DNA of 64,000 nucleotides from Myxococcota bacterium. Lineage in GTDB: Bacteria > Myxococcota_A > SURF-8. The position numbers and the translations under genes are program-made. The stretch spans positions 5,792,001 through 5,856,000 of the forward strand of contig OZ223209.1 in the NCBI GenBank assembly GCA_965140415.1, written 5' to 3'. The notes beneath the pieces were generated by a model, which was not told the DNA's origin, did no database searches, and saw only the letters and a list, made by a program, of their open reading frames with translations. Below, one piece after another: positions 4,674 through 47,233 of this stretch; positions within the stretch are counted from its first letter, which is position 1; each line of letters begins with the position of its first letter.

Positions 4674-5176
4674 TCCACTGGTAAATAACGACGGATCGCG
4701 TCGATCCGAAATGCATTGCTGTTTATTTATTGAAAAGCGGACGTGCTTTTTAATTGCCTTTGTATTCTGTTCAGAACGGCTGGGAGATCAAGTTAGAATT
4801 CGGTTTGGAAATCGCCATCATCGTGGCAAAGCGCTGCGCCGCGCGAACGTCGCCGAAAACATCCAACGATCGATTGCTGGAGCTTTTTTCTTGGGCTGGA
4901 AGGCTGAGTAAATTGGTTTTCATCATTTCCAAAGTGGTTGTTGAACAGTCACGGTTGTCGTTTGCACTTTAGAAAGGATAAAGTCGGTATGATTGATTGA
5001 AATGAGATTTCGGTTAGCTATGAATTAGACACTGATAACCATACATTAACATTTGATTGCACTGAAACCGTTCCAGAAAACCGGCGGAAATGAAATAGCT
5101 GAAGGAATCCGAAATCTTGAAAAGATTTTCATTCGGTGTTAGGAGAACGAGTCACAGTGGCCTAGCGTATCGATTC

Positions 5177-5339
5177 TATTACTCAATTCCAATCATCGAG
5201 TAATCATGCTGTGACATGGTCTCACGGGATGAATATTCCGGGAGGCCGTGTCTGACATCAAGAAAACACAAAGCCTTCCGCGATCTTCGGTAGCGTAAGA
5301 CCATGGCACACTTTCGTATAATCAATATTTCATATTGAT
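5177..5339. ncRNA. Candidate structured RNA/ssDNA element, copy 1
   Basis: About 84% identical without gaps (22 differences in 139 nt, hand count) to 46771-46909; multi-helix fold conserved between the copies. Confidence 0.55.
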
Positions 5340-5350
5340 GAGCAGTTAGC

Positions 5351-5887
5351 TTAGTCGATGGGCACACCGACCGTGCGGAAGGAAAGCCCCTGCTGGCTGG
5401 CGGTGCTGATCATCACGCATTCGATCAACGGCGTGGATACTTTTACAGTCGACTGCCAGTGAACCAGGAAATTCGCGCCGCTTCCGCCGCTGGTATCGCG
5501 CGCGCCGACGATGTATTCCAGCGTTCCCAAAGGCGGAATTCGTAACGGCTGCGGAACGTATTCTCGTACCAGTTTGCCGTTCGTATCGTGATAGGTGACC
5601 GAGTCGATATAAATGGATTCATGCACGTCGGTATTGCGGATACTGAGCGTGTTGGTCAAATAGAAATTCTTGCTATCCTCGTGGTAGATGTGACTATAGG
5701 CGGAAACATATACATTGTGCCCCTCGATCATGCGTAGCTGCTTCCATTTTTCGGCAGCGACTTTTTCTCCACCTTCGCTGGTGACCGTCCGTTTTCCGTT
5801 GCGATGGTTTTGACCGCAACCAAATGGAGACAGAAACAGCGAAAGCAATACAAGCGCGATCAACATCATTTTCAGCGGGCTATGCAT
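5351..5887 (-). CDS. DUF3124-family lipoprotein
   Basis: Lipobox PFG-C; VYVxAYSHIY, LSIRNTD, GGSGANFLVxW and PLIECVMI motifs typical of DUF3124. Confidence 0.85.
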   Translation of the reverse strand: MHSPLKMMLIALVLLSLFLSPFGCGQNHRNGKRTVTSEGGEKVAAEKWKQLRMIEGHNVYVSAYSHIYHEDSKNFYLTNTLSIRNTDVHESIYIDSVTYHDTNGKLVREYVPQPLRIPPLGTLEYIVGARDTSGGSGANFLVHWQSTVKVSTPLIECVMISTASQQGLSFRTVGVPID

Positions 5888-6657: not shown

Positions 6658-8478
6658 ATGCGGATACTTGGTATTTCCGCCTTCTATCACGACAGCGCCG
6701 CCTGCCTGTTGCAGGATGGCAAGATTCTAGCTGCCGCGCAGGAAGAGCGATTCTCGCGAAAGAAACACGATTTCCGTTTTCCCGAGCAGGCCATCGACTA
6801 CTGCCTGAAAGAAGCGGGGATTTCGGTTGCCGAGTTGGACCTGGTGACCTTTTACGACAAGCCCTTCATGAAACTGGATCGCCTGCTGGAAAGCTATTTG
6901 ACCTATGCGCCAATCGGTTTCGGCTCCTTTTTGAAAGCGATTCCGGTCTGGATGAAGCAGAAAATATTCCTGCGTAAAATCATCCACCAGTATCTGCCCG
7001 GTTTCGAAGGAAAACTGCTCTTCGCCTCGCATCACGAGTCTCATGCGGCAAGTGCCTTTTATCCTTCACCTTTTCAGCGTGCAGCCATTTTAACCGCCGA
7101 CGGCGTCGGCGAATGGGCCACCACCAGTTTCGGTGTCGGCAAAGACAATCACGTCGAACTGATTTCGGAAATGCACTTTCCGCATTCGCTCGGATTGCTC
7201 TACAGCGCATTCACCTACTACACCGGTTTCCGTGTAAATTCGGGGGAGTACAAGCTGATGGGCCTGGCTCCCTACGGCAGACCCATCTACGAAAAGCAGA
7301 TTCTGGACGAACTGATCGACCTGAAAGAAGACGGCTCGTTCCGAATGAACATGAAATATTTCAATTACGCCACCGGCCTGACGATGACCAACGGCGCTTT
7401 CGACAAGCTCTTCGGCGGGCCGCCGCGAAAACCGGAAACGCCGGTGCGCCAGAAAGACATGGATTTAGCTCGCTCCATCCAGGTGGTGACGGAAGAAATC
7501 ATGCTGCGCATCGCGCGGCATATCCACAAAGTTACCGGCGAAAAATATCTCTGCCTGGCAGGTGGCGTGGCGTTGAATTGCGTGGCCAATGGCCGTTTAT
7601 TGCGGGAAGGCCCCTTTGAGGATATCTGGATTCAGCCCGCTGCCGGCGACGCGGGTGGAGCGCTGGGAGCCGCCACGGTGGCCTGGTATCGTTATCTCGA
7701 TAATCCGAGAACTATCAATGGTTCCAATCGCTTGCAGCAGGCAAGCTATCTCGGTCCGGCCTTTGGCGACGACGAAATCCAGGCGTTTTTAGACGAGCAG
7801 GGCGCGGTCTACACCAAACTGACACCGGAAGAGGTTCCCGTCCGAACGGCGGAACTGATCGCCGATCAGAAAGTGGTGGGCTGGTTTCAGGGACGCATGG
7901 AATTCGGTCCGCGCGCCTTAGGCGCTCGCAGCATCATCGGCGATGCGCGCAGCCCCAAGATGCAGTCGATCATGAATCTGAAAATCAAATTCCGCGAGTC
8001 ATTCCGGCCATTTGCACCATCCGTGCTGGCGGATCATATTAGCGACTGGTTCGAGATCGACCGCGAATCGCCCTACATGCTGATTGTCGCGCAGGTTAAA
8101 AAAGAACGCTGCCGCGATATGGATAACGAAGAGAAAAAGCTCTTTGGAATCGATATGTTAAATGTGGTGCGCTCCGAAATTCCGGCGGTGACGCATGTCG
8201 ATCACTCGGCGCGGATTCAGTCCGTCAATCGCGAGGATAACGCCCCGTATTACGACATGATCAACGCATTTTATAAGCGCACCGGCTGCCCGGTCATCAT
8301 TAATACCTCGTTCAACGTACGCGGCGAGCCGATTGTCTGCCGTCCGCAGGAAGCTTTCGTCTGCTTTATGCGGACCCAGATGGACTATCTGATGGTCGGG
8401 AATTTCCTGCTGGCCAAAACGGAACAGAAAAAAGTGGAACTGGATGAATCCTGGATGCAGGAATTCGAACTGGATTAG
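6658..8478 (+). CDS. Carbamoyltransferase (NodU/CmcH/SxtI-like)
   Basis: ILGISAFYHDSAAC, EERFSRKKH, HHESHAASAF, GEYKLMGLAPYG, EFGPRALG, RESFRPFAP, NTSFN; GGAG RBS upstream. Confidence 0.95.
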   Translation: MRILGISAFYHDSAACLLQDGKILAAAQEERFSRKKHDFRFPEQAIDYCLKEAGISVAELDLVTFYDKPFMKLDRLLESYLTYAPIGFGSFLKAIPVWMKQKIFLRKIIHQYLPGFEGKLLFASHHESHAASAFYPSPFQRAAILTADGVGEWATTSFGVGKDNHVELISEMHFPHSLGLLYSAFTYYTGFRVNSGEYKLMGLAPYGRPIYEKQILDELIDLKEDGSFRMNMKYFNYATGLTMTNGAFDKLFGGPPRKPETPVRQKDMDLARSIQVVTEEIMLRIARHIHKVTGEKYLCLAGGVALNCVANGRLLREGPFEDIWIQPAAGDAGGALGAATVAWYRYLDNPRTINGSNRLQQASYLGPAFGDDEIQAFLDEQGAVYTKLTPEEVPVRTAELIADQKVVGWFQGRMEFGPRALGARSIIGDARSPKMQSIMNLKIKFRESFRPFAPSVLADHISDWFEIDRESPYMLIVAQVKKERCRDMDNEEKKLFGIDMLNVVRSEIPAVTHVDHSARIQSVNREDNAPYYDMINAFYKRTGCPVIINTSFNVRGEPIVCRPQEAFVCFMRTQMDYLMVGNFLLAKTEQKKVELDESWMQEFELD

Positions 8479-8486
8479 GAAAAAAC

Positions 8487-8888
8487 ATGCAACTGCCTGA
8501 ACGTACCACACAAAAGCTGCGTAAGTTTTCACTGGGCATCGTCTTGATCTGCACCGGCCTGGGGGCTCTGCTATTCTTCAAAGAGCATCCCGTTGCGGCG
8601 GGCGTGTTTGCCTCCTTGACGTTGTGGGGCATATTGGGCTTATTGATTCCCACGATCATTACGCCGCTGTACCTTTTTATGTCGGTGCTGGGTCTTATCT
8701 TGGGTTGGTTCAACACACGAATCATCCTGGGTCTGGTTTTCTTCCTTGTTTTCACGCCGTTAGGATTGTTTTTCCGCCTGATTCGACGCGATCCCTTGAA
8801 TCGTCGCCCCGATTCCAAGCGTGAAACATACTGGGAAAAAGTCGATTCCAGCGCCTTTGAAACCGAGCGTTACGAGCAGCAATACTAG
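8487..8888 (+). CDS. SxtJ-family membrane protein
   Basis: LRKF, LGWFNTRIILGLVFFLVFTPLG, RDPL, YW and terminal EQQY; lies directly after the carbamoyltransferase. Confidence 0.85.
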   Translation: MQLPERTTQKLRKFSLGIVLICTGLGALLFFKEHPVAAGVFASLTLWGILGLLIPTIITPLYLFMSVLGLILGWFNTRIILGLVFFLVFTPLGLFFRLIRRDPLNRRPDSKRETYWEKVDSSAFETERYEQQY

Positions 8889-14150: not shown

Positions 14151-14298
14151 GATGGGCAAAGCAATTGCCCATCCTACTATGAATTACTATACACGTGCAT
14201 AGTATTGGTAGCTATTAATCAGGTACAATGTACCCGACATTTCCGATTGGTGTCGGGTCAGGAGACCCGACCAAAACCTGTGGAGCATGACGGGAGCC
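14151..14298. repeat. Mosaic REP-like palindrome cluster flanking the IS
   Basis: GATGGGCAA-AGCAA-TTGCCCATC-CTAC (GTAG-type, reversed), ATCAGGTAC-AAT-GTACCCGAC, TGTCGGGTC-AGGA-GACCCGAC, and the left half TGGAGCATGACGGGAGCC. Confidence 0.7.
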
Positions 14299-15604
14299 CA
14301 CAGCTGTCCCGCTAACTTCCAGGTTCAGCGCTACAACTACTTATTATTACAGATTGAATTTGTGATTATCAGGTGTCCGCGATAGTTTTTCTGCATTTCG
14401 AATAGTCAAGAAATGCAGGAGATCAAAATGACACAGACTGTCTTTTCGCAAGTGCTCGACTATTTGCCGGATCGCCATTTCCGCCGTTGTGTCAATCGCT
14501 ATCAGGGGAACAAGCGCATTCGTACCTTTTCCTGTATGGATCAATTCATTTGCATGGCATTTGCCCAGCTGGCCTACCGCGAAAGCCTGCGCGATATTGA
14601 AGCGACCTTGCGGGCTATTCAGCTGAAACTTTATCACATGGGTCTGCGTGGAAAAGTCTCTCGCAACACACTGGCCAGAGCGAATGAAAAACGCGACTGG
14701 CGCATTTACGCAGATCTCGCTCAGCCCCTGATACGGCGCGCCCGCGCGCTGTATGCGGACGAGAAGCTCGCCGTCGACCTAGACGCCACCACCTACGCGC
14801 TCGACACGACAGCGATTGATTTGAGTTTGTCGCTTTTTCCATGGGCCAAATTCACGCGATACAATGGATCATTGCGTCTTCACACGCAAATGGACCTTCG
14901 CGGACGGATTCCCGCCTTTATTTCCATTACGGACGGCAAGAGCCATGACAAGCGTTTACTGGATATTCTGCCTTTGGAAGCGGGCGCATTTTATATCATG
15001 GATCGCGGTTATGTCGATTACGGACGCATGCATCGCATCCATCGGGCGGGAGCCTTCTTCATTCTTAGAGCCAGCAAGAACACCAGCACAAAGCGAATCT
15101 ATTCACACCCCATCGACAAGAGCTTGGGATTGCGCGCCGATCAGACCGTGAGCTTCGTGGACCGTGCTTCCATTCGACGCTATCCGGATCATGTGCGGCG
15201 AATCAACTACATCGATCCAGAATCGAACACCCGATTTGTCTGGCTGACCAACAACTTTGATCTTTCTTCGGAAACGATTCCGGACTTGTACCGGCTGCGG
15301 TGGAGTATCGAAGTGTTTTTCAAATGGATCAAACAGAATCTGCGAATCAAGGCGTTTTACGGTCGCAGCGCCAATGCGGTAAAGACACAAGTGTGGATTT
15401 CGATTACGGTTTATCTGTTGGTTGCGATTCTGAAAAAGGATCTGAATCTCGAGCACAGTTTGATGACGATTCTACAGATTTTAAGCGTCACGCTTTTCGA
15501 GGAAAGCCCCATTTTACAGGTGCTAAAGGCAAACGCCTCCCTGCCTACCAATATCCCTTTTGGTAAGCAGTTGGAATTATTCAATAGTTAACGGGACAGC
15601 TGTG
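14299..15604 (+). mobile_element. IS4-family insertion sequence (1306 bp), 19-bp terminal IRs, 10-bp target-site duplication
   Basis: IRL CACAGCTGTCCCGCTAACT (14299-14317) and IRR AGTTAACGGGACAGCTGTG (15586-15604) match at 18/19; direct repeat GACGGGAGCC at 14289-14298 and 15605-15614. Confidence 0.95.
14413..15591 (+). CDS. IS4-family DDE transposase (DUF4372 N-terminus)
   Basis: VFSQ...FAQLAYRESLRDI, ALDTT, MDRGY, YRLRWSIEVFFKWIKQNL (YREK-like); the stop lies inside the IRR; alternative start at 14428. Confidence 0.95.
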   Translation: MQEIKMTQTVFSQVLDYLPDRHFRRCVNRYQGNKRIRTFSCMDQFICMAFAQLAYRESLRDIEATLRAIQLKLYHMGLRGKVSRNTLARANEKRDWRIYADLAQPLIRRARALYADEKLAVDLDATTYALDTTAIDLSLSLFPWAKFTRYNGSLRLHTQMDLRGRIPAFISITDGKSHDKRLLDILPLEAGAFYIMDRGYVDYGRMHRIHRAGAFFILRASKNTSTKRIYSHPIDKSLGLRADQTVSFVDRASIRRYPDHVRRINYIDPESNTRFVWLTNNFDLSSETIPDLYRLRWSIEVFFKWIKQNLRIKAFYGRSANAVKTQVWISITVYLLVAILKKDLNLEHSLMTILQILSVTLFEESPILQVLKANASLPTNIPFGKQLELFNS

Positions 15605-15638
15605 GACGGGAGCCCTGCTCCAACGCAGAGGTATACTA

Positions 15639-17926: not shown

Positions 17927-18360
17927 GCGCGTACCTCCTGGTCCTCGGGGTTTCTCACGGCTAAATTAGGACCCAATTGACGTATCTTTTCCGTGAATAC
18001 ATTGAACAACTCGGCTAGCTGCGGTCCCATGGATGCAGCATTGTTATGAAATTCAAGTCGCTCCGGATCGATATGCGCCTCTTCCAACAACTTGCGACCG
18101 CGGGCGATGCGTTTTTTCGCCTTGATGTTGCCGCTGATGAAATGGCAATCGCCTTCCATGCAACCGACCACCAGAACGCCGTCGGCTCCTTTTAGAAAGG
18201 CATCCAGCACTTCCTGCAACTCGGCGCGCCCCGAACAGGGAATGCGGACGATGCGCACGTTGGGCGGATAACTGAGCCGCATGGAGCCGGCCAGATCCGC
18301 CGCTGCGAATCCGCAGTAGTTGCAGCAGAACGCGATAATGGTAGGTTCGAAATCAGCCAA
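17923..18360 (-). CDS. mvhD: MvhD/FlpD [2Fe-2S] subunit, Cys form
   Basis: FCCNYCGFAAADLAG, IPCSGR, GADGVLVVGCMEGDCHF; TTG start. Confidence 0.92.
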   Translation of the reverse strand: MADFEPTIIAFCCNYCGFAAADLAGSMRLSYPPNVRIVRIPCSGRAELQEVLDAFLKGADGVLVVGCMEGDCHFISGNIKAKKRIARGRKLLEEAHIDPERLEFHNNAASMGPQLAELFNVFTEKIRQLGPNLAVRNPEDQEVRA

Positions 18361-21300
18361 TTCTTCCTCCCTCTTGTTCCTCGTGTTGCTGGATCACATC
18401 GAGAATGGATTCTATCTGGCTATTGGTGAAGTGCTGAAGTTGAATTGCTTTGCCAGGACATTCGGAAGCGCACACACCGCAACCGCGACATTCCGCCGGG
18501 TTGATATAGGCTGCGCCGATATTGCTGTCGATGATCGGAACGCCATACGGGCAGGCTCGCACGCAACCCAGGCAGACCGCGCATTTGTCCGGGTCCACCA
18601 CGGAAACCTGTCCACCCACCGAGAGATGATCTTTGGACAGAATGCTCATGGCGCGTGCGGCAGCGGCGGAAGCCTGAGCGATGGTTTCATCGATCGGCTT
18701 GGGACCGTGCGCCAGACCGGCCATGTAGACGCCGTCGGAGGGGAAATCTACCGGACCCAGTTTCTGATGCACTTCCAGGAAATAGCCGTCCGCCGTGCGC
18801 GGAAGTTTCAGAATTTCCGCAATGACGTTGTTGTCGTTGGGTTCGATGGCTGCCGCCAAAACCAGCAGATCCGCCTGAACCTTCAGTTTACCCAAGCGCG
18901 GCAGAGGATGCTCCACAAGCACCTTGTCTCCCTGCGGCGTCACGACCGGTTGATGCTCCAAATCGTAGCGTACGAACAACACGCCCAGTTGTCGCGCCTG
19001 CTCGTAGAGTTTTTCCTTCATCCCGTAGGAGCGCATGTCGCGGAACAGAATGGTCACGTTGGTTTTGGGCGAATTCTGCTTGATCAGAATGGCGTTCTTC
19101 AACGACTGCGAACAGCAGACCTTGCTGCAATAAGGACGGGTTTCGTTGCGCGAGCCGACGCATTGGATCATAACGACTTCTTTAAGCGCCGAGACCTCAT
19201 CCGGGTTATGCTCCAAGCGCTGTTCCAGATCCAGTTGCGTGATGACCGCCGGGCTTTCCCCATAACCGAAGGTATCCGGCTTGGTTTCGCGCCCGCCGAT
19301 AGCCACCACCGTGGCACCGTGCTTGATCGACATGCGACGTTTCTCGCCGTTACTCTGCTCGATCAGACTTTCGAAGTTACCCAAAAAACCGTCGGTGCGC
19401 AGCAGACGCGCACTGGTCAAGACCTCGATTTTGTCGTGTTCATTCACACGCCGAATCAGATCTTCGCGGAATTCCTTGATGGGACGCCCGTCGTGTGTGG
19501 CCCGCAGTTTGTTCAGGTTACCGCCCAGTTTGTCGCTCATTTCGATCAAGGTCGTCGGGAAGCCCTGATCCGCCAATTCCAGCGCAGCGGTCATTCCTGC
19601 CAAACCACCACCGATGACCAGCGCACTGTGTACCAGCGACTGGTTCTGTTTATGCAGCGGTTCCAACTGACGCGCATTGTTGATGGCCATATCGACCAGC
19701 ATTTTGGCTTTGTCCGTGGCGCGTTCCGGTTCCTTCTGATGGACCCAACTGCAATGCTCGCGGATATTGGCCATGCTGAACAGGTAGTTGTTGATACCGG
19801 TATCGCGCAAGGTTGCCTGGAACAAGGGTTCGTGGGTACGCGGCGTACAGGACGCCACCACCATGCGGTTGATGCCCTTTTCCTTGATGATCTCTTTCAT
19901 ATGTTCCTGATTATCCTGCGAACAGGCAAACAGGACGCCCTCGGCGTGAACGACGTCGCCATGACGGCCAGCATAATCAGCCACGTCCGGCACGTTGACG
20001 ATGCCGCCGATATTGATACCGCAGTTACACACCCATACACCGATGCGCTGATCGCTCGCGTCTGTGTCTTTTTCATCCACCAGTTGTAGCTGTTCAATCT
20101 GGGTGTTGCGTGCACTGCCCAGATGCCGCGTGGCGGCTGCCGCCGCTCCACTGGCCTGGGCCACCGATTCGGGAATGTCTTTGGGCCCCTGCATGACGCC
20201 ACAGACGAACACACCCGGCTTGGTGGTTGCCAACGGCTTGAAGGGATCCGTTTTGGCAAAGCCGAAATCATCCAGTTCGATGCCCACGCGCTGCGCCAGT
20301 TCCGCGACTTCCTCGCGCGGTTTCAGACCGGTGGAAAGCACGAGCAGATCGAAAGTCTCCTTGACCGCTTTGCCGTCTTCACCGATGTAGGTGACTTCGA
20401 TGTCCTGGTTCTCCGGGACTTCATCTACACGAGAGATCATCGAACGCACGTAGCGCACGCCGTACTGACTTTGCGCACGGTTGCAGTAGTCGTCGAAACC
20501 TTTTCCGGCGGCGCGCAGTTCCATCATGAAGATGGTCGTCTGCAAATCTCCGCCTGCGTGGTCGGTAGCGATAACCGCTTCCTTGGTAGCGAACATACAG
20601 CAGACCGCCGAACAGTAGTTGCGGTCGTTGCGTTTGTCGCGACTACCCACGCATTGAATCCAGGCGATTTTGTGCGGGTGCTTGCCGTCGCTGATACGCG
20701 CCACATGTCCTTCCGACGGTCCCGTGGCCGACAGCATGCGCTCGAAGTCCATGCTGGTAATCACGTTCTGCCAGCGTCCGTAACCGTATTCGCCGATTTC
20801 CTCGGCTTCGAACTGATCGAAACCCGGGGCGAGGATCACGCTACCGACATCGAGGATGCGCTCGCGTTCCGGCATGTTGTGGTCGATCGCTTTGGCGACG
20901 CAGGTCTCCTCGCACAAGCCACATTCCGAACAGGTACCGCAGACCAAGCAACGTCCCGCCTCGGCAATGGCTTCCTCTTCGGTCATCACCTGTGCGACTT
21001 CGTCGAAGGTGCCGATGCGCTTTTCGACATCGATATGATGAGGCGCAGGCCGATGCGCTTCCGGTACGCGCGACAGTTTGGGCTCGGGGGCCAGTTTCGG
21101 CAACCATTCGCGCCCTTCACGCAGATCCTGACCGTTCAAGTAACGGTGAATGCTCTCCGCCGCTTCTTTTCCATGGGCAATGGCGGTAATGGCAATGCCC
21201 GGTCCCGCCTGCAAGTCGCCACCGGCGAAGACGTTGGGAACTTCGGTTTGGAAGGTCAACGGATCGGCCTTGATCCAGCCGTGATTCAAAATCTTGTCCA

Positions 21301-22831
21301 GCGACGAACCGCTCAGGAAATCGTCCGGTCCCTGGCCGATGGCCACGATGACGTTATCGCATTCGATGGTTTCCGTTGCATTGTCGTCGAAGGTCGGGGC
21401 AAAGCGCCCGTTTTCATCGAGTACCGACAAGCACTTACGGAAAGTGATCCCCGTAACTTTACCGGCTCCATCTTTATGGATTTCCACCGGACCCACGGAA
21501 TTGTGACGAATTACGCCCTCTTCCTCGCCTTCCACGATTTCATCGAGGCTGGCGAGCATGTCTTCACGCGATTCCAGGCAACACAGATGCACTTCGCGTT
21601 TGGCGTTTGCATCCGCCTGGGTCAAGACGCGCAACGAGGTGCGAGCGACATCGTAGGCGACATCACCGCCGCCGATCACTACCACCCGGCGTCCCAAAGT
21701 CGGCGGATTCAGGTAGGCCACATCGCGCAGGAAATCGATACCCGGCAGCACGCCTTCGGCGTCTTCGCCCGGTACGTTTAACATGCGCGCTTTCTGCGCA
21801 CCGCCCGCGATGAACATGGAATCGTAGTCGGAAGTCAGGCTATCCACGCTGACGTCCGTGCCTACACGAGTATTGCAGCGAATCTCGACGCCGATATCTT
21901 CAATCGCCTTGATTTCCGCCGCCAGAATTTCGCGCGGCAGACGATAAGCGGGAATGCCACTGCGCAGCATACCGCCCGCTTCGGGTGCGGATTCGAATAC
22001 GGTCACGGCGTGGCCGTTCAAGCGCAGGAACCAGGCAGCCGTCAGACCCGCAGGTCCACCACCGACCACGGCGATTTTCTTGCCGGTATCCGCAGCGACT
22101 TCGGGCAACGCTTCCGCCGCCTCGTGGGTCGTTTCGTAATCGGAGACGAAGCGCTTCAGTTCGCGAATCGCCAAAGGCTCATCGACTTTGCCACGATTGC
22201 AGGCATCTTCGCAGGGATGCGGACAGACGCGACCGCAGACCGCCGGGAAGGGCAGTTCGCGTCGGATGACTTTAAGGGCATCGGCAAAGCGGCCCTGGCC
22301 GATCAGCGCTACATAACCCTGACAGCGTGTATGCACCGGGCAGGCGTCGCGGCAGGGCGACGTTCCCTTTTTCTCGATGGCATAGCCGCCGGGAATGGCC
22401 TGGGGGTAACGCTTGCGAATGGCACGGCGTCCATCCAGGCCCATGTTGTATTCGTTGGGAAGTTCGATCGGACAGACCTTGGCGCACTCACCGCAGCCGG
22501 TACATTTTTCCAGATCGACATAACGCGGATGCATCATGACCTTGGCCTGGAAAGTCCCCGGATCGCCATCCAGCCCCAGCACTTCCGTGTTGGTCAGAAT
22601 TTCGATGTTCGGATGTCGTCCCACCTCGATCAGCTTCGGCGAAATAATGCACATCGAGCAATCGTTGGTGGGGAAGGTCTTGTCCAGTTGCGCCATGCGA
22701 CCACCGATGGCCGTGTCGCGCTCGACCAGATATACTTTAAACCCGGCGTTGGCCAGATCGATGGACGCCTGCATCCCGCCGATGCCTGCGCCAACTACCA
22801 TCACCGCTCCTACTGGTTGTTTCGCCGTCAT
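18353..22831 (-). CDS. hdrA: HdrA-like flavoprotein, HdrL type (duplicated HdrA domains with an inserted GltD-like NAD(P)H oxidoreductase)
   Basis: GGRMAQLDKTFPTNDCSMC, QCVGSR twice, insert with PCRDACP, CGRVCPHPCE, GGGPAG and GGGDVAYD; C-terminal ferredoxin; 1492 aa. Confidence 0.92.
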   Translation of the reverse strand: MTAKQPVGAVMVVGAGIGGMQASIDLANAGFKVYLVERDTAIGGRMAQLDKTFPTNDCSMCIISPKLIEVGRHPNIEILTNTEVLGLDGDPGTFQAKVMMHPRYVDLEKCTGCGECAKVCPIELPNEYNMGLDGRRAIRKRYPQAIPGGYAIEKKGTSPCRDACPVHTRCQGYVALIGQGRFADALKVIRRELPFPAVCGRVCPHPCEDACNRGKVDEPLAIRELKRFVSDYETTHEAAEALPEVAADTGKKIAVVGGGPAGLTAAWFLRLNGHAVTVFESAPEAGGMLRSGIPAYRLPREILAAEIKAIEDIGVEIRCNTRVGTDVSVDSLTSDYDSMFIAGGAQKARMLNVPGEDAEGVLPGIDFLRDVAYLNPPTLGRRVVVIGGGDVAYDVARTSLRVLTQADANAKREVHLCCLESREDMLASLDEIVEGEEEGVIRHNSVGPVEIHKDGAGKVTGITFRKCLSVLDENGRFAPTFDDNATETIECDNVIVAIGQGPDDFLSGSSLDKILNHGWIKADPLTFQTEVPNVFAGGDLQAGPGIAITAIAHGKEAAESIHRYLNGQDLREGREWLPKLAPEPKLSRVPEAHRPAPHHIDVEKRIGTFDEVAQVMTEEEAIAEAGRCLVCGTCSECGLCEETCVAKAIDHNMPERERILDVGSVILAPGFDQFEAEEIGEYGYGRWQNVITSMDFERMLSATGPSEGHVARISDGKHPHKIAWIQCVGSRDKRNDRNYCSAVCCMFATKEAVIATDHAGGDLQTTIFMMELRAAGKGFDDYCNRAQSQYGVRYVRSMISRVDEVPENQDIEVTYIGEDGKAVKETFDLLVLSTGLKPREEVAELAQRVGIELDDFGFAKTDPFKPLATTKPGVFVCGVMQGPKDIPESVAQASGAAAAATRHLGSARNTQIEQLQLVDEKDTDASDQRIGVWVCNCGINIGGIVNVPDVADYAGRHGDVVHAEGVLFACSQDNQEHMKEIIKEKGINRMVVASCTPRTHEPLFQATLRDTGINNYLFSMANIREHCSWVHQKEPERATDKAKMLVDMAINNARQLEPLHKQNQSLVHSALVIGGGLAGMTAALELADQGFPTTLIEMSDKLGGNLNKLRATHDGRPIKEFREDLIRRVNEHDKIEVLTSARLLRTDGFLGNFESLIEQSNGEKRRMSIKHGATVVAIGGRETKPDTFGYGESPAVITQLDLEQRLEHNPDEVSALKEVVMIQCVGSRNETRPYCSKVCCSQSLKNAILIKQNSPKTNVTILFRDMRSYGMKEKLYEQARQLGVLFVRYDLEHQPVVTPQGDKVLVEHPLPRLGKLKVQADLLVLAAAIEPNDNNVIAEILKLPRTADGYFLEVHQKLGPVDFPSDGVYMAGLAHGPKPIDETIAQASAAAARAMSILSKDHLSVGGQVSVVDPDKCAVCLGCVRACPYGVPIIDSNIGAAYINPAECRGCGVCASECPGKAIQLQHFTNSQIESILDVIQQHEEQEGGRIG

Positions 22832-23664
22832 GCCAGCTCCCGTATGCTAAGTAAGGACTGAGGGTCGCTTAGATGTTTGCGGAAGTAGCCCTTCGCCCGT
22901 GTCGGGTCCAGGGCCAGCATCATCAGCTCCGTAAAATAAAAGACCGGCAAGGGTCGCGGGCCATCGCCCATCCATTGCCGCTCCAGATTCATGAAGCACA
23001 TCGAACAACCGGTGACGATCGCTTCCGCACCGGTGCGCGCCGCCATTTTGAAGATATCGCCGGTCAGCTTCCCAACGATTTCGTCGCGCGTCATCGTCAG
23101 ACTGCCGCCACAACAGGTCGTCTTGTAGGACCAGTCGATGACCTCCGCGCCGAGAGCTTTCAAGATGTCGTCGACTTCCGTGGGATTTTCCGGTTTGGGC
23201 GCGCCGGTGATATTGGCCGGGCGCGACGTCAGGCAGCCGTAATAGCAGACCACCTTCAGGCCTTTCAGCCCGTCTCCAGCCTGCTTTTTGAGTTTTTTCA
23301 GCACCTCTTCTTTACTGAACAGGTGCATGACATGCTTTACTTCCGCCTTGCCGGTCACGTTTTCCACGCCCTTGGGTGCGCCATGTTCCAACACGTGATG
23401 ACGAGCAGCGGCCAAACGACCGAAGCAGGCCGGGCAGGGGGTCACGACTTCATCTCCCATCTGCTCGGCAATCGCCAGATTACGTCCCGCTAACGCGACG
23501 TTCAATTCGTGACTGACTGTGTGGGCGCTACTTGCACCGCAACAGCTCCAGTCTGGAAGTTCGGTCAATTCCATGTCCAGCATGCGACACAGATCGCGGG
23601 TGGACTGGTCCAATTCCTGGCCGGTTCCCTCCGCGCTGCAACCTGGGTAGTATGCCACTTTCAT
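22828..23664 (-). CDS. hdrB: Heterodisulfide reductase subunit B, copy 1
   Basis: YYPGCS, DWSCCGAS, PCPAC, YYGC, TCCGG. Confidence 0.92.
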   Translation of the reverse strand: MKVAYYPGCSAEGTGQELDQSTRDLCRMLDMELTELPDWSCCGASSAHTVSHELNVALAGRNLAIAEQMGDEVVTPCPACFGRLAAARHHVLEHGAPKGVENVTGKAEVKHVMHLFSKEEVLKKLKKQAGDGLKGLKVVCYYGCLTSRPANITGAPKPENPTEVDDILKALGAEVIDWSYKTTCCGGSLTMTRDEIVGKLTGDIFKMAARTGAEAIVTGCSMCFMNLERQWMGDGPRPLPVFYFTELMMLALDPTRAKGYFRKHLSDPQSLLSIRELA

Positions 23665-24233
23665 CCGATGTTCTCCTTGAATAGCTTCCGGATTTCATCT
23701 CGGGAAGAAACGTTTTTGGCGAAAAGATGAATTTTACCTTTGCCGAACAGTTTCAGCCCCAGCTTGAAGTCCTTGAAGAAGTCGCCGGTGGCCATCTTGT
23801 ATTTGCGGATCATGCTCAACTCATGCAGACGACCATGCCGCTCTACCGTATCCATGAAAGCTTTGTGGAAAGCCGGGATACTCGGTTCCGATGGCGTGAC
23901 ACCGCTTGCGGTAGCCCGTTGGCGCAAGAAGTCGATGACCTTGGGCAACGCCAACTGATTGGGGCAGCGTGTCGTGCAGGTTTCGCAGGAAACGCACAAC
24001 CACAGGTGATGGGACTGGAAAAGCTGATCTTCCATGCCCAACTGCACCATGCGCCAGAAATCGTGCGGCATCACATCGGTCAGTTCCACGATCGGACAGC
24101 CCGACGAGCATTTCCCACACTGGTAACACTCCATCGGATTGACGCCGGTTTCTTCGGCTACCTGTTGTGCCAATTCGGAATTTGGTGAAATTTCTTCACT
24201 TTCGAAAGGGGGGGTTTGGGTATCCATTGCCAT
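23661..24233 (-). CDS. hdrC: Heterodisulfide reductase subunit C
   Basis: CYQCGKCSSGCP, WLCVSCETCTTRCP, GRLHE; start uncertain (24227, 24233 or 24281). Confidence 0.9.
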   Translation of the reverse strand: MAMDTQTPPFESEEISPNSELAQQVAEETGVNPMECYQCGKCSSGCPIVELTDVMPHDFWRMVQLGMEDQLFQSHHLWLCVSCETCTTRCPNQLALPKVIDFLRQRATASGVTPSEPSIPAFHKAFMDTVERHGRLHELSMIRKYKMATGDFFKDFKLGLKLFGKGKIHLFAKNVSSRDEIRKLFKENIG

Positions 24234-24711
24234 TGCAAGCCTCGCATTGCGTGTTGAAATGGAATTGAAAACGTTGTTCAATACAGACTACAAGTGCCAC
24301 ATCCGAAGCCGTCACTATATGGACAGCGCTTGCGGTTGATCATGTCGGTAAATCTATCGGCGCCTTGAACCAGCCATCCGCTATATAACACCACTGCACC
24401 CATCAGCGCTATTATGCCGATCCATGGTGCCGATCACGCTGACGCAGGCCCGAAGCCGGCGTTGGTTGCGGGTGACGCGGGGCTGGGATTTTTCCTGCGT
24501 CTGCTACCCGACACCCACTTTCGCTCTATATTGGTCTTGTGTCAAGCGGATGAACCATCATTTTTTTCATTTCCCCAGGAAAAATGCCACTAACCCGAAA
24601 TTCACAAGCACGCAGCATACCTTTCAATTCGGCGAAACGGGCATTCGCCGGGAAAAATGACGCAAAAACCCCACCTGTCCCATCGTCATAGTGGGAAACC
24701 GGCAAGCGCCC

Positions 24712-24740
24712 TTGACGCAGAGACAAAGCGTCCGTATAAT
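24712..24740 (+). promoter_or_regulatory. Sigma70-type promoter
   Basis: TTGACG-N17-TATAAT upstream of the Fe-S/CoA-transferase/GNAT gene. Confidence 0.7.
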
Positions 24741-25001
24741 CAAGTGTAATGCATTCGTTGTCTTGGCTTCCGGGTAGTCTGCCTGTCGTATTTCAGGGGC
24801 GTGTCGGCACTCTTGTATGGAACCATACGAGAGTCTTGTTGCTGTTCGTTATGCGTTTCAAGCGCCTCCCTTCCAGAACATGCCCCGGACCCGGACGTTC
24901 ATGGAATGCCGCCCGCGCCCCCATCGAGGATAGAAGAATTGCGCACCGGGGTATGCATCGGTTTCAATTCGCCGTTCGATTCCAGCTATCGGGGTGAATA
25001 C

Positions 25002-27851
25002 ATGAAAGTGTTACAGAAAATCGATCTTCCGGTCATTCTGGAACAATTGGCCGCCCGCTATGGCAAAATATACGGACCGATGCGCCGCCATGGAGGCGAA
25101 TTGCGTTTCGGCCAGTATCTCGGCGAAGAACTGGATCTGGACGGCGGCCTGCCGATGAACTCGCCCAAGGACATCTTTTCCTCTCGACTGGCATGGATCG
25201 AAGCCGCGCTCAAAGAAGGAAGAAGCGAATTTCCAGAACCCGTTGTCTTGTTCGGAATTCGCCCCTGCGATCTGGACGCGCTGGATCGTCTGCAACAACG
25301 ACTGATACCTCAACTAGGGGAAAACGTACTGCTGGGTGAAATGGTTTCTCTGATCGTTGCCAACACCTGTAGCTTTCCGGAATTGAACTGTTTCCACGCC
25401 TCGATGGGTGGCGATCCCAAGCAAGCACCCAAGGCGGATATCCTGTTCTCTTCGATCGGAAACGATCTGTACATCCACGCCCAATCCCAGCGCGGAACGA
25501 AAGCGCTGGAGCAGATCGACAACTGGTTGCGCGAAGCCGACGACAGCGAAAACCAGCAGTTGCACGCCGTTTCCAAACTCGGCTTCCAGACTTTCAGAAA
25601 GCCCGACATTCCGCGTTTACGCCAACAACTTCATGAACGAATCGGAAAGTTGGCGCTATCCGCCGAGTTCGAAGACTGTTTAGCCTGCGGCAACTGCTTG
25701 CAGGTCTGTCCGATGTATCTTCCCATTGCCGATACCTTGACCAAAACAAAGGTTTCGACAACGAAACCCACTTATCAACGCCTGCCTTTCGAGAACATGC
25801 TAATGGCGTTGCAGGACGCCGGGCAACGCATCGACTGCGTCGGCTGCGGGCGATGTTCGAATGTCTGTCCCAGCGGACTGGGAATGCTGGAAGCCATCGA
25901 CAACGTATTGGGACGGGTCCGGCGTGGCGACACCAGTTCGTCGTTTGCGTCAAGCAAGCTACCCGAATGGCTGTTGCCCATCCGGCAGAAACTGGTCACA
26001 CCGGTAAAAGCCTTTTCCGTCATTCGACCCGGCGACACGGTTTTTCTTGCCAGTGGCTGTGCCGAACCGCAGTTTCTGGCGCGCGCCTTTATGGAAAACT
26101 ATCACAAGTTCTTAAACGTACAGGTCATTCATCTGCTTTCGATGGGTGCCGTCACCTTCGACGATCCCCAGCTCACCGACCATTTACGGCTCAACGCCTT
26201 TTTCATCGGCGATCAGTCGCGGCAGGCGGTCGCTAGCGGTCAGGCCGATTACACGCCGGTGTTTCTTTCCGAATTGCCCGAACTTTTTCGCAGTGGACAA
26301 ATCCCGGTGGATGTGGCCCTGATTCAGGTATCCCCGCCGGATCGACACGGCTACTGTACGCTAGGCATTTCGGTGGAAACCATTCAGGCGACGGTAGCCA
26401 GCGCCCATACGGTCATCGCCCAGATCAACCAGCATATGCCGCGCACCTATGGCGATACCGCCATTCACATCGACGATATCGACGAAGTCATCCACGTCGA
26501 TGAGCCGCTGATCGAGTGGAGACCGCCCGCTATCCGTGAACGTACCGCCAAAATCGGGCAGTACATCGCGCAACTGGTGGAAGATGGGGCGACGTTACAG
26601 ATCGGCATCGGCAAGATCGGGCAGGCGCTGTTACCGTTTTTACGCGAACGCAAAAACCTGGGAATTCACACCCAGATCATCACGGACGAAGTCATCAACC
26701 TGATGCAAAAAGGGGTGGTCAATAACCGACTTAAAGGCATCAATGAAGGCCGAACGGTGGCCTCCTTTGCGGTGGGTACCCGGCGCTGTTACGCCGCGCT
26801 GGACAACAACCCCTCCATCGAGTTTCGGGGCATGGATTATGTTTCCGATCCCAACGTGATCAGCAAAAACAACAAAATGACCGCCATCAACTCGGCCTTT
26901 GAAGTCGATCTGGCCGGGCAGGTCTGCGCCGATTCCATGCACCATCAGTTTTACAGCGGCATCGCATCGATGGCCAGCTTCCTGCGCGGCGCGGCGCGCT
27001 CCAAAGACGGCAAGCCGATCATCGCGCTTCCCAGCACGGCTTTAAACGGTGAACACTCGCGCATTCAACCGCTACTGTCTCCCGGCAATCCGGTCGTTGC
27101 GACCCGTGGCGACGTGCACTACATCATCACCGAATACGGCATCGCCTACCTGCACGGAAAATCGCTGCGCGAACGGGCGCTGGCCCTGATTGAAATCGCG
27201 CATCCCAAGTTTCGCGGCTGGCTACTGGAACAGGCCAAGCAGTTGAAATACATTTTCGAAGATCAGGAACTGCCCTCGTTAAGCCAGCACGTATATCCCG
27301 AAGAATGGGAAACAACGGTATTTACCACCACCGGCGAGGAACTTTCCGTGCGCCCGATCAAGGCTTCGGATGAACCGGCCTTACAACGGCTCTATTACTC
27401 GCTTAGCGATCAGGATGTCTTCATGCGTTTCATGGGTAACGACCGCCATTTTCACCATAACCGCATGCAGGCACTGACGGTCGTCAACTACGACACACGC
27501 ATGGCCATCGTCGCTACACGCGGACGCATGGGACGCGAGGAAATCATGGGCATCGCCCGCTACGACATCGACCCCGCCTCCGGCATTGCGGAAGTCGCCT
27601 TTACGATTCGGGACAGCATGCGCAGACAGGGCATCGGTACCCGGTTACTGGAACATCTTACGGTAATCGCCAAAAGCAAGGGAGTGAAAGGGTTCCGCGC
27701 GGAGATCCTTTCCCGCAACCGGGCGATGATGAGCCTGTTCAATACGTCGGGCGCAAGGCCGCATTCTCATGTCGAGGATGGCATGTACACCATGTGGTAT
27801 GCTTTCGATTCGGAATCGGACACCATACAAGAACCAACCCCAACGAAGTGA
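25002..27851 (+). CDS. Fusion: AsrA/FlxC-like [4Fe-4S] domain + acetyl-CoA hydrolase/transferase-like domain (Glu->Gln) + GNAT acetyltransferase
   Basis: LFGIRPCD, CLACGNCLQVCP, CVGCGRCSNVCP; QVSPPDRHG, LQIGIG, GIHTQ, TEYGIA; C-terminal RPI...AEVAF...QGIG GNAT. Likely start is ATG 25002; the ORF extends to 24801. Confidence 0.85.
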   Translation: MKVLQKIDLPVILEQLAARYGKIYGPMRRHGGELRFGQYLGEELDLDGGLPMNSPKDIFSSRLAWIEAALKEGRSEFPEPVVLFGIRPCDLDALDRLQQRLIPQLGENVLLGEMVSLIVANTCSFPELNCFHASMGGDPKQAPKADILFSSIGNDLYIHAQSQRGTKALEQIDNWLREADDSENQQLHAVSKLGFQTFRKPDIPRLRQQLHERIGKLALSAEFEDCLACGNCLQVCPMYLPIADTLTKTKVSTTKPTYQRLPFENMLMALQDAGQRIDCVGCGRCSNVCPSGLGMLEAIDNVLGRVRRGDTSSSFASSKLPEWLLPIRQKLVTPVKAFSVIRPGDTVFLASGCAEPQFLARAFMENYHKFLNVQVIHLLSMGAVTFDDPQLTDHLRLNAFFIGDQSRQAVASGQADYTPVFLSELPELFRSGQIPVDVALIQVSPPDRHGYCTLGISVETIQATVASAHTVIAQINQHMPRTYGDTAIHIDDIDEVIHVDEPLIEWRPPAIRERTAKIGQYIAQLVEDGATLQIGIGKIGQALLPFLRERKNLGIHTQIITDEVINLMQKGVVNNRLKGINEGRTVASFAVGTRRCYAALDNNPSIEFRGMDYVSDPNVISKNNKMTAINSAFEVDLAGQVCADSMHHQFYSGIASMASFLRGAARSKDGKPIIALPSTALNGEHSRIQPLLSPGNPVVATRGDVHYIITEYGIAYLHGKSLRERALALIEIAHPKFRGWLLEQAKQLKYIFEDQELPSLSQHVYPEEWETTVFTTTGEELSVRPIKASDEPALQRLYYSLSDQDVFMRFMGNDRHFHHNRMQALTVVNYDTRMAIVATRGRMGREEIMGIARYDIDPASGIAEVAFTIRDSMRRQGIGTRLLEHLTVIAKSKGVKGFRAEILSRNRAMMSLFNTSGARPHSHVEDGMYTMWYAFDSESDTIQEPTPTK

Positions 27852-30640: not shown

Positions 30641-31810
30641 ATGGGACTCATGAACAATGTGGTCAGCCTGAGCCAGTTTCAGGTCATCGGCCATCCGCCC
30701 AAAGACGACGTGGAAGCCTGGCTTGCAGATCGTCTGAGCAAATCCGCCTTTCAGCCGATAGACGACCTGATCAAGGAACAGTCCAGCGGCTGGGTTTGTC
30801 TGGACGATATGACCGACAACACCTTTGCGGAGGCACGCGCGTTTCTGCGGCCTCCCTACGTCTGCTTCAGCCTGCGCAAAGACGAGCGCAAGGTGCCCAA
30901 AAGCCTGTTGACGCAGCAGGTGGACGCCGCCTGCAAACGCTGGTTAAGCGAACATCCGGATTTCAAATTTGTACCCAAAGAGCTTAAAGGCGAATTCCGC
31001 GATATCGCTTTTCACAACCTGCTCAAAAAAAGCCTGCCGGTCCCCAGTACCTTCGATGTCGTATGGAATACCGATCTGGGTGTAGTCAGTGCGACCTCGC
31101 TGAACAACAAGGAACTGGACGCCTTCTGCAAGCTCTTCGAGCAAACTTTTACAGGAACCGGCCTGCTCGCGGTGCATCCATTCGCACGCGCCACAATGGT
31201 GCTCGATCCCAAGCATCATACACAACTGCAACGCCTGAACCAGGCAGGCAGCGACCATGTGATGGATCTGATCAACGAAAACCTCTGGATCGGAAACGAC
31301 TTTTTGCTTTGGCTGGTCTACAACACCTGCGAAAGCGATTCGCAGTACGCCGTGACACTGGATGGTCCTGCGATTCTGGGCGAACCCTTCGTCGCACATG
31401 TCGACAGCCGCGTGCTGGCCGCCGGTCAGGAAGGGGAAGCGGTGCAGCGCATCACCTTTGCCGGTCCCCAGGGCGATTTCAGCGAGGTGCGCTCGGCACT
31501 AAAGAGCAACATGCAGTTGCATGAGGCGATGATCTATTTCGAGAAAGACGACGACATCTACAAACTCACCTTAAAAGGCGACCTGTTCCGTTTTGCCTCC
31601 TTCTCGTGCCCGAAAGTCAAGATCGAGCGCGACGAAACCACCAACGAGATCGACGAACGCGAGGCGGTGTTCTACGAACGCATGCACCTGCTGCACACCG
31701 GCTTGCAGATGTTCGACAGCCTGTTCGCGGAATTTCTGGAGCTGCGCCTGTCCAAGAAATGGTCGGCGCTGGTTACGGATATCCAGCAATGGGCCGAAGC
31801 GGCCCGTTAG
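30641..31810 (+). CDS. RdgC-like recombination-associated protein (deltaproteobacterial type, two modules)
   Basis: FQPID...SGWV, FSLRKDERKVP, PVPSTFDVVWN, GNDFLLWL, FYERM. Confidence 0.65.
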   Translation: MGLMNNVVSLSQFQVIGHPPKDDVEAWLADRLSKSAFQPIDDLIKEQSSGWVCLDDMTDNTFAEARAFLRPPYVCFSLRKDERKVPKSLLTQQVDAACKRWLSEHPDFKFVPKELKGEFRDIAFHNLLKKSLPVPSTFDVVWNTDLGVVSATSLNNKELDAFCKLFEQTFTGTGLLAVHPFARATMVLDPKHHTQLQRLNQAGSDHVMDLINENLWIGNDFLLWLVYNTCESDSQYAVTLDGPAILGEPFVAHVDSRVLAAGQEGEAVQRITFAGPQGDFSEVRSALKSNMQLHEAMIYFEKDDDIYKLTLKGDLFRFASFSCPKVKIERDETTNEIDEREAVFYERMHLLHTGLQMFDSLFAEFLELRLSKKWSALVTDIQQWAEAAR

Positions 31811-31854
31811 AGCGATTCTTAATCATTTTTAGCGATATATGTTTTCTTGATTTC

Positions 31855-31922
31855 TGTAGCGGCGGAGCGTAAGCCCGCCGTTTTCAAAGTGTTTTTCGGC
31901 GGGCTTACGCTCCGCCGCTACA
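31855..31922. repeat. REPIN-like inverted doublet of GTAG-type REPs
   Basis: Perfect 26-bp inverted repeat TGTAGCGGCGGAGCGTAAGCCCGCCG / CGGCGGGCTTACGCTCCGCCGCTACA with a 16-nt spacer, between convergent genes. Confidence 0.85.
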
Positions 31923-31953
31923 AGAAGACATCGCTAATATCGTAAGGGATTAC

Positions 31954-42772: not shown

Positions 42773-42829
42773 TCCTCTCTCCTTTTAACGAGTGAACAAA
42801 TTCCGAATCCTCTGTCTCGGCAGAGAAGA

Positions 42830-43042
42830 TCAGGCCGGTGTTTTGCGCTTCTCGCTTCCGAATCCCTCCTCTACATAATAGTATCGGAGACCGGTCTTGA
42901 TGTACTTGAGCATCTCTTCGCGATCACGAGTCTTGGCGCGCCAACGATCGGCATCCTCCGGAATGCCTTCTTCGTAGGTGGCGTCTAAGACTTCCACCTC
43001 CTCGCCATCGAACTTCTTTTTCTTCACCTTGGTTTCCGTCAT
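42830..43042 (-). CDS. Small hypothetical protein leading the acs operon
   Basis: 70 aa, AGAGGAG RBS, codirectional with acsD and 57 nt upstream of it. Confidence 0.75.
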   Translation of the reverse strand: MTETKVKKKKFDGEEVEVLDATYEEGIPEDADRWRAKTRDREEMLKYIKTGLRYYYVEEGFGSEKRKTPA

Positions 43043-43585
43043 TGCAATCTCTCCTCTTTCGGTTGGGTGTCAAATGGTTGTTGAATTCTCAGTCCGTGCT
43101 CGAATAACAAAATGAAAAAAAATCTTGACCTATACGCACTCTTGGAGTAAATGAGCGAACCTCTACGCTAAGCTCATTGCCTCCTCATATTTGATAACCC
43201 TAGAACCTTCATCCGTCATAACGTGCTCGCGAAATATACTTTTGCCACAAATATCGGGAACTTGAGTACTGACTTCCGCAAAAAGATGTTCGGGGTTTTT
43301 CCACTTATTATAACTCAAAACCAAGTGTACCAATAAGTTGTTATCATACGTCCAGCAATCAGGCAAGGCTTTTTGTCGGTGATCCGTATTAATATTTTCC
43401 CATAAAACATTAATAAATGCCTCTTTTCCCTTTCCCCATAAACCGGGTCGAGTCTCTCGTCTGATCGATCTGGTAAGGTACTTCCCTTTTCATTGCCAAT
43501 GAACTTATGCACTCCATGACCCCGCATCGCCAACTTCTTCGACGTGCTGCGACTTGATCTTAGGCTCCGCTGCTAGCTGGGGCAT

Positions 43586-43676
43586 TTGACAAAACCATGC
43601 TGCACAGCAGAATATTCCACCTAATTTTGCGGATTTCACGAATTCGCTTGACGCTTACCTGTCCTTGACGCAAAAT
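43586..43676 (+). promoter_or_regulatory. Candidate sigma70 promoters for fhs
   Basis: TTGACA-N16-CAGAAT (43586) and TTGACG-N17-CAAAAT (43648). Confidence 0.4.
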
Positions 43677-45683: not shown

Positions 45684-45714
45684 GCTAGGCGCTGGCAACG
45701 GGGCTTGAATTCTC

Positions 45715-45748: not shown

Positions 45749-45778
45749 GAGAACGATCCAATACAAGGAGGGGCCGAC

Positions 45779-46722: not shown

Positions 46723-46770
46723 ATGCTCAATTTTCAAAGCCGTGGAATACGGCTGTCCAACTAGAGTAGG

Positions 46771-46934
46771 TATTACTCAATTCTGTCCATCGAGTAATCA
46801 CGATGTGACATGGTCTCACGGAATGGAAATTCCGGGAGGCCGTGTGTAACTTATTGAAGACACACAGCCTTCCACGATCTTCGATCGCGTAAGACTATGG
46901 CACACATTCATGGAATCAGTGGCTAAAATTGATT
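46771..46934. ncRNA. Candidate structured RNA/ssDNA element, copy 2
   Basis: Homolog of 5177-5339; additionally enclosed by an outer stem CTAGAGT-A-GGT / ACC-GCTCTAG (46761-46948). Confidence 0.55.
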
Positions 46935-47233
46935 AAGAACCGCTCTAGAGCCACAACTATTCATAAACAAACATGTGGTTATCCTGAATGCAACAAAGGA
47001 TCTGCATGAAAATATTAAAGATTCTTCGGCTTCGCTTCAGAATGACAAGTTCAACAGTAGCCATTTCAATCAATCCTGAATAAAATGAGATCCGAGCAAC
47101 AAACTCACAATAATGCAGATCCGCTTTGATTTTTATGCTGCAATATTCCTTAGTAATATCAACCAACTAAAAATCCTTACAAAAAAATATCACTTTTTTC
47201 TAAAGTTTCCTCTCGAACTGCCGATCACTAGAG

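Follow-up and report, generated by a model that had tools for sequence, protein, structure and literature searches.

REPINs and MITEs are listed as separate kinds of repeat in the accessible parts of previous accounts (bioRxiv 10.1101/2021.07.10.451892; PMC3189936). Among the IS630-derived MITEs, RUP of Streptococcus pneumoniae, Correia/NEMIS of Neisseria, ERIC, and Nezha are, according to the available sections of two reports (PMC2817692, PMC3184786), non-coding and shorter than 200 nt, share their terminal inverted repeats (TIRs) with an insertion sequence (IS), carry TA at both ends, form a stable hairpin, and are often found at gene 3′ ends; the IS that matches Nezha is known only from another species. 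The element described here is like them in these features. Unlike RUP, Correia, ERIC, and Nezha as portrayed in those sections, it encloses a REP doublet whose origin can be traced to a RAYT locus, instead of anonymous remains of the IS, and this interior is more uniform than the ends.

REPIN-RAYT systems, in the parts of the sources that are available (PMC3116915; bioRxiv 10.1101/2021.07.10.451892), comprise two inverted REPs about 100 nt across with a variable spacer and conserved arms. They are extragenic, their doublets are over-represented, and the same arms flank a low-copy RAYT (REP-associated HUH tyrosine transposase) gene, all of which applies here as well. The present element differs from those systems in its foot, which is GTGC and not GTAG, in its arms of about 40 nt with a stem-mismatch-stem layout, and in the location of the doublet within TA-flanked IS630 ends. 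It was also reported that REP recognition is strand-specific and that mismatches in the stem play a role (PMC8266576, accessible part). TIRtrons/TIRYT and REPtrons, as far as the accessible text of PMC3733652 describes them, show a similar layout, in which a tyrosine transposase gene lies between long inverted, partly self-complementary repeats that occur as dimers elsewhere; unlike in TIRtrons, the foot here is GGGTG[CG]CA and not GGGGWSAS. With regard to the TnpA-Y1 transposases (PMC6006769, in the portion available), the RAYT protein associated with the present arms (locus L082, see below) has the class 2 Y-NP motif and lacks the C-terminal extension seen in subclass 2.1, and its WQ and YIHNNP motifs resemble, by motif only, subclass 2.6 or, within 2.2, the marginal GTGG-rich branches.

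No description of a REPIN inside IS630 or IS5 MITE ends was found in the openly accessible literature. A paper on a REP-MITE hybrid in Pelobacter reportedly exists, which was not traced in the open literature.

The 186-nt element and its REP doublet

The window, i.e., the whole 64,000-nt stretch of DNA that was analysed, belongs to a Myxococcota genome (G000) assembled as one contig of 5.98 Mb and 93.7% complete. The initial annotation had pointed to a structured element of about 160 nt, present twice. Both copies lie where it placed them, in the same orientation, and align without gaps over 139 nt (from window positions 5177 and 46771) with exactly 22 differences; the stems that it named are present in the sequence. 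The length and the number were, however, underestimated. The element measures 186 nt from TA to TA (Table 1), over which copies 1 and 2 differ at 47 positions, and a profile built from 65 near-full copies and then run on G000 gave 95 non-overlapping hits, comprising 88 at E<1e-3 and 80 at E<1e-10. The genes beside the two copies are housekeeping or metabolic ones, namely a DUF3124 gene (copy 1) and folD (ahead of copy 2).

Table 1. Positions in the window of the two copies, their parts, and a sister element
Feature	Coordinates	Strand	Remarks
Copy 1, whole element TA to TA	5168..5353	+	old, decayed ends; model register, TA at both ends
Copy 1, left TA	5168..5169	.	presumed target duplication, as seen at paralogous empty sites of other copies
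Copy 1, decayed left IS630-type end and subterminal segment, with ATTACTC/GAGTAAT hairpin	5170..5208	+	
Copy 1, left REP arm	5211..5250	+	GTGC-type foot, 9-bp stem, A.G mismatch, inner hairpin
Copy 1, variable spacer between arms	5251..5268	.	corresponds to the site of the RAYT gene in G004
Copy 1, right REP arm, inverted	5269..5309	-	folds on the minus strand, C-GAA-G triloop
Copy 1, decayed right IS630-type end	5310..5351	+	
Copy 1, right TA	5352..5353	.	within the TAA stop (5351-5353, minus strand) of the DUF3124 gene 5351-5887
Sister element	31808..31939	+	IS630-type end, then GTAG-type REP doublet (31856-31921); far end decayed
Copy 2, whole 186-nt element TA to TA	46762..46947	+	90 nt downstream of folD, directly after a terminator-like hairpin
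Copy 2, left TA and imperfect terminal inverted repeat, IS630-type	46762..46790	+	
Copy 2, left REP arm	46805..46844	+	
Copy 2, right REP arm, inverted	46863..46903	-	
Copy 2, right terminal inverted repeat and TA	46919..46947	+	27/29 identical to the right end of the G004 IS630

Both ends and both arms are present in 38 of the 88 copies, 29 of which are exactly 186 nt long. TA occupies both termini in 25 of the 38 full copies and is missing at one or both called ends in the other 13, a few of which look like one-base register shifts of end calling. Conservation drops sharply just beyond the TA in 32 strict full copies. The TIRs of these 32 are imperfect, with 9–17 of the first 22 positions agreeing between the ends (10/22 in copy 1 and 16/22 in copy 2). 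Like a MITE, the element is short, non-coding, and multicopy. The median identity over 2080 copy pairs is 0.79 and only one pair reaches 0.98; therefore, most copies are old.

Forty relatives were sampled, none of the same genus, and target duplication was examined at paralogous sites instead of orthologous empty sites. The flanks of the copies at G000 5936016 and 850984, joined across one TA, correspond to uninterrupted repeats elsewhere in G000, and a sister element with matching ends lies inside the copy at 4448417, bordered on either side by the repeated TA. These paralogous empty sites show TA target duplication. Contigs of three sequencing runs over copy 2 contained no joint skipping the element, which speaks for neither reading. 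The initial annotation had reported that terminal inverted repeats with target duplication were lacking, because its coordinates cut the repeats off and the ends of copy 1 are decayed.

In the middle of the element lies a core of 100 nt, each half of which folds alone into a foot, a 9-bp stem, an A.G mismatch, and an inner hairpin, the left half on the plus strand and the right half on the minus strand. The four-way junction suggested by the earlier fold is a REP doublet, in which compensatory changes fall within the halves and not across the closing helix, where an RNA with a four-way junction would be expected to have them. Seven genomes yielded 247 arms, 155 of them distinct. Among the 152 arms of G000, 115 have a neighbouring arm no more than 200 bp away, and 53 pairs there stand in inverted orientation at a distance of exactly 99 bp. 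Single arms, and arms with a gene between them, were seen as well in the genomes examined. The within-arm hairpin is 95.8% paired in 78 arms, compared with at most 43% in slid controls. Compensatory cells within the arm number 142 versus 38 in shuffles (78 aligned arms, 7 genomes), the aligned arms being related sequences and the cells not independent events, while pairs changed on both sides (7/14) were not above shuffles, 192 of 500 of which reached this number. The alignment took 78 of the 79 listed arms, with one G000 arm at the edge of L005 omitted and only 9 from G000. A comparison inside the doublet carries more weight: stem positions 4 and 9 differ between left and right arms, and each arm stays Watson-Crick there; the cross-arm helix at these two positions would have G.T in 47 and C.A in 52 of 56 doublets.

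Triloops occur in 37 of 61 clean inner hairpins, and 26 of these 37 are GNA with N being any of the four bases; d(GNA) triloops are stable DNA loops. The CTTCG hairpin that had been read as a UUCG loop does not form a C(UUCG)G tetraloop; its sequence, GATC-TTC-GATC, gives a C-GAA-G triloop on the minus strand. The mixed G-U evidence for strand noted earlier arises because each arm has two T.G pairs and those of the two arms lie on opposite strands, as befits a two-fold symmetric doublet.

Several features of REPINs are thereby found in the interior. Each arm is, by sequence folding, a strand-specific hairpin with an unpaired 5′ tag, and the inverted doublet encloses a variable spacer (difference 0.29 versus 0.05–0.07 in the arms). 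The tag is mostly GTGC, not the GTAG or GTGG of REPINs, and the whole element is not a REPIN by its boundaries, which lie about 40 nt outside each arm at the TA-flanked TIRs. Over 39 register-clean copies, the mean pairwise difference per site is 0.05–0.07 in the arms and 0.18–0.49 in the ends, and private changes per site amount to 0.012–0.013 in the arms and 0.012–0.023 in the ends and elsewhere, although these copies had been picked with a left-arm filter that favours arm conservation. The arms are more uniform than the ends, the reverse of a plain MITE with inert cargo. This is partly, and only partly, explained by the fact that the two ends of IS630 differ at outer positions; an arm role in copying, gene conversion, and a host role at gene ends are possible causes.

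The initial annotation had recognised no known RNA class in the element. The Rfam search agreed with this, giving no match at the gathering score in the whole window and three chance-level ones in the region of copy 1 (E 0.57–5.3; search up to E 10). Resemblances to an IS110 bridge RNA, an integron attC site, a hairpin ribozyme, and SRP, considered as leads, were rejected from alignments.

RAYT loci and insertion-sequence ends in related genomes

The two halves of the G000 core align to two arms in G004, a genome of the same family, where locus L082 (G004:C2:794500-796200) presents the left arm, a RAYT gene (491-1122), and the right arm in succession. The ORF scores 90 bits against NF047646 (REP-associated tyrosine transposase; cut-off 80), and its protein is short, with 161 aa from the first Met. 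L082 is the one locus at which these REPs were found to flank a RAYT gene, and G000 has no such locus. From its sequence, this arrangement is likely the source of the core.

RAYT relatives with 38–57% identity occur once or twice in G000, G002, G003, G006, G007, and two more genomes. Each RAYT locus that was read has inverted flanking hairpins with a G[GT]GTG[CG]CA-type foot and an otherwise different sequence. The G000 member of the L082 subfamily (L154, G000:C1:4582411-4582875) contains one in-frame TAG and is flanked by arms of another REP family, which has 69 matches in the genome. Of 80 metagenome RAYT loci examined, 71 had sufficient upstream flank and 50 of these carried the foot there; on the downstream side it was present, inverted, in 61 of the 72 with sufficient flank. 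The control on the opposite strand was high (58/143) and is not clean, probably because REPs come as doublets. GTGG (59) and GTGC (53) were the foot variants in this subfamily, the motif search having admitted these two only. The arms of the present element were found at none of the 80 metagenome loci.

As a separate observation, the RAYT subfamily (L199-L278, L153-L162) is widespread, occurring in at least 517 metagenome stretches; its flanking hairpins retain a GTGG or GTGC foot followed by CA and otherwise differ widely in sequence. In addition, a RAYT of another subfamily with GTAG-type flanks at L127 (G001:C2, about 349600-351000) lies between two direct blocks of about 370 bp that contain the present REP doublet.

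With regard to the ends, G004 has two identical, TA-flanked IS630 elements of 1097 bp (one at L077), which encode a frameshifted transposase with DDE_3 and HTH_33 domains (NF033545, 160 bits versus a cut-off of 100) whose stop codon falls inside the right end. Two G000 copies share 28 identical nt with this right end, and 10 of 32 copies agree with it at 27 or more of 29 positions; for the right end of copy 2 (G000 5838919-5838947), BLAST gives 93.1% over 29 nt. Hits to the 3′ end of the element in G004 lie directly behind DDE_3 matches. At its left end, the repeat is less similar to known IS630 ends (21–22 of 29 positions at best), and the exact parent is therefore a relative of the G004 IS630. 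The two ends of the G004 element agree with each other at the inner 18 positions and differ at the outer ones, and those of the repeat do likewise. Within the repeat, the two ends are co-inherited (Mantel r 0.24–0.39, p 0.001–0.016; 39 register-clean copies), and no empty IS630 shell was seen among 23 inspected of 24 orphan end matches.

An IS630 transposase is present in all five relatives searched. In G000 (93.7% complete), by comparison, no match to DDE_3 or to the G004 protein was found, and none of 13 NF033545 matches exceeded the cut-off; five of them were checked, of which four fit IS481 better and the fifth is a 49-aa N-terminal piece. A cognate transposase in the same genome, one of the features looked for in an IS630-type MITE, is thus not seen in G000. 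The earlier statement that no transposase lies beside the two copies holds, and it is in G004 that an IS630 DDE transposase and a RAYT with matching ends are found.

Other candidate sources were set aside. An IS630 in L080, considered as parent of the core, is an insertion at a TA into an IS5-shelled copy, and another in L081 adjoins half a core; neither gave rise to the core. The ends of IS5-like elements in G000 differ from those of the present element. Of 10 Y1 matches in G000, 3 have a copy or fragment no more than about 300 bp away; the one protein that was read is an ordinary IS200, and this proximity was treated as shared intergenic hot spots.

The 100-nt core is common to genomes of two families in the order. 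A phylum-wide DNA search matched 13 of 401 genomes, strongly only in these two families (f1 and f2), the other 6 being short hits with E above 0.002. A pattern scan of metagenome contigs gave no matches, and a pattern match in Planctomycetota (L031) lies inside a coding region and was dismissed as chance.

In related genomes, the doublet is found either bare or inside IS5 ends. In G004, G006, and G009, it often occupies a different shell, which is TA-flanked, about 237 nt long, and matches at its ends an IS5-family element of 870 bp that is multicopy in these genomes. Both IS5-type ends were seen at 4/6 loci in G004, 6/12 in G006, 1/11 in G009, and 0/16 in G001-G003, counting fetched loci only. 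The transposase is retained in the genomes with IS5-shelled doublets (e.g., L097, L163), a system that may be active. A third combination occurs in the window itself, where the sister element (Table 1), with its TA in the TAG stop of ORF 30641-31810, carries a GTAG-type doublet behind an IS630-type end. Across G000, 20 of 67 GTAG-type REPs have a TIR-like IS630-type end within 70 nt. In this lineage, a REPIN is thus nested in a MITE three times over (GTGC/IS630, GTGC/IS5, and GTAG/IS630), apparently by separate captures in DDE shells. G000 also holds at least three further REP-like families (67, 69, and 149 matches), nested in each other and in the present element.

How the element may have formed and spread

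Most likely, the 186-nt element represents selfish DNA of a nested kind, namely a REPIN inside an IS630-type MITE, rather than a new RNA gene. In its full form, which we consider probable, this reading holds that a RAYT-derived doublet was captured in a deleted IS630, was carried to TA sites in trans by the transposase of an IS630, and is by now probably stranded. Briefly, deletion of the RAYT gene from between two inverted arms, whose intact arrangement is seen in G004, would have left the doublet. This doublet would then have been captured in an internally deleted IS630, of which about 40 nt of each end were retained. The composite, whose anatomy, boundaries, and TA duplication are observed, was moved to TA sites, mostly just behind gene ends, presumably by the IS630 enzyme. 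Its mobility has probably been lost since, as the assembly yielded no IS630 transposase and the G000 RAYT of the L082 subfamily has an in-frame stop and different arms. Any RNA from the copies would be putative passive read-through from neighbour genes. Several points count against this account: the arms are far more uniform than the ends, the mobilising IS630 enzyme is documented in a relative and not in G000, similarity to known IS630 ends is lower at the left end, L082 is the only RAYT locus found with these exact arms, and TA is absent from one or both called ends of 13 of 38 full copies.

A different view of the copying step keeps the same anatomy and has a RAYT read the single-stranded arms, alone or together with a DDE enzyme, while the IS630 ends ride along or serve only for integration at TA. 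Across subfamilies, uniformity is about fivefold higher in the arms than in the ends, with similar private changes, a pattern more in keeping with constraint in the copying lineage than in resident copies; DDE shells enclose REP doublets three times (the present one with IS630 ends in G000 and with IS5 ends in G004, G006, and G009, and a GTAG-type one with IS630 ends in G000); and conserved REP-stem mismatches matter for E. coli TnpAREP, according to the available part of PMC8266576. However, the limits of the element are set by TA-flanked TIRs lying about 40 nt beyond the arms and accompanied by TA duplication, which is a DDE signature; the left-arm filter favoured arm conservation in the copies selected, a younger cargo spread by gene conversion would yield the same pattern, and the G000 RAYT of the L082 subfamily has other arms and a TAG stop. 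We regard RAYT-driven copying as unlikely. The three captures and the stronger arm uniformity point, in a further form, toward REPINs that ride in DDE mini-transposons as a hybrid selected as a two-enzyme replicator, with arms for copying and IS630/IS5 ends for delivery to TA. This proposal is doubtful to a similar degree; if it were true, REPs would have a dissemination route independent of RAYT-mediated integration.

The genomic context raises the question of a host role, namely that the element spread as a MITE and is kept by the host between convergent genes as a 3′ RNA hairpin, either a two-way terminator or an mRNA stability element. Gene context was derived from crude ORF calls (custom script), a weakness for this proposal, and by these calls convergent genes flank 31 of 60 copies, compared with 197 of 1284 large gaps, and divergent genes flank 1 of the 60; the median distance to a gene 3′ end is 30 nt, and the terminal TA is part of a stop codon at 6 of 78 ends. 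Roles as a terminator or mRNA stability element have been described for MITEs (PMC3184786, in its accessible sections). The same distribution would nevertheless result from TA targeting and loss of insertions near promoters, and the arms gain private changes at about the rate of the rest. Retention by the host seems rather improbable. Along the G000 contig, copies are uneven (22 in the first Mb, 18 in the last, and 3–7 in each other) and split 30 versus 30 between replichores, with GC skew giving no clear origin. The least probable reading, to which we give very little weight, is a multicopy ncRNA with a four-way junction, possibly a ribozyme. Folding against shuffles does give z-scores of −4.2 and −4.5 for the two copies on the plus strand and of −3.9 and −5.5 on the minus strand, the core consensus, when folded as DNA, adopts the four-way form as its predicted minimum for both strands, and the core is conserved across two families. 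Against this, it is the inverted duplication of the arms alone that makes the cross-arm helix complementary, and the uncompensated differences fall in this helix; the halves fold on opposite strands, and loops vary freely except for the GNA bias; single and gene-split arms exist; copy orientation in co-directional gaps is 17 versus 11 (p=0.34), i.e., there is no strand preference; and Rfam gave no match. Of the two possibilities that the initial annotation had left side by side, the structured non-autonomous mobile element is supported, while the novel ncRNA is not, given halves that fold on opposite strands.

Reading the element as an IS630-type MITE with a REPIN inside removes a false ncRNA candidate and accounts for its RNA-like appearance: an inverted REP doublet always folds as a four-way junction with mixed G-U signals. 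The candidate enzymes, IS630 (L077) and RAYT (L082), are both intact in G004, and the spread of REPs is therefore testable on this element.

Other features of the window

Several further features were noted in the window. Positions of about 14245-15637 (G000 5806245-5807637) hold a copy of a multicopy 1.35-kb DDE_Tnp_1 element with a 401-aa frame. Short palindromic repeats, in place of uniform ends, delimit the copies of this element, which suggests targeting of REP-like sites. At 6658-8888 (+), a carbamoyltransferase gene precedes a small ORF that matches Pfam SxtJ. Genes for formate-tetrahydrofolate ligase, folD, a CdhD-like protein, and large flavin and iron-sulfur proteins lie at 41243-46672, 18353-27851, and 59906-63565; from their sequences, these genes together would fit an anaerobic metabolism of the Wood-Ljungdahl type. 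Just behind copy 2, at 47019-47051 (G000 5839019-5839051), is a short palindromic repeat of another family, one member of which is the insertion site of the element copy at G000 850984.
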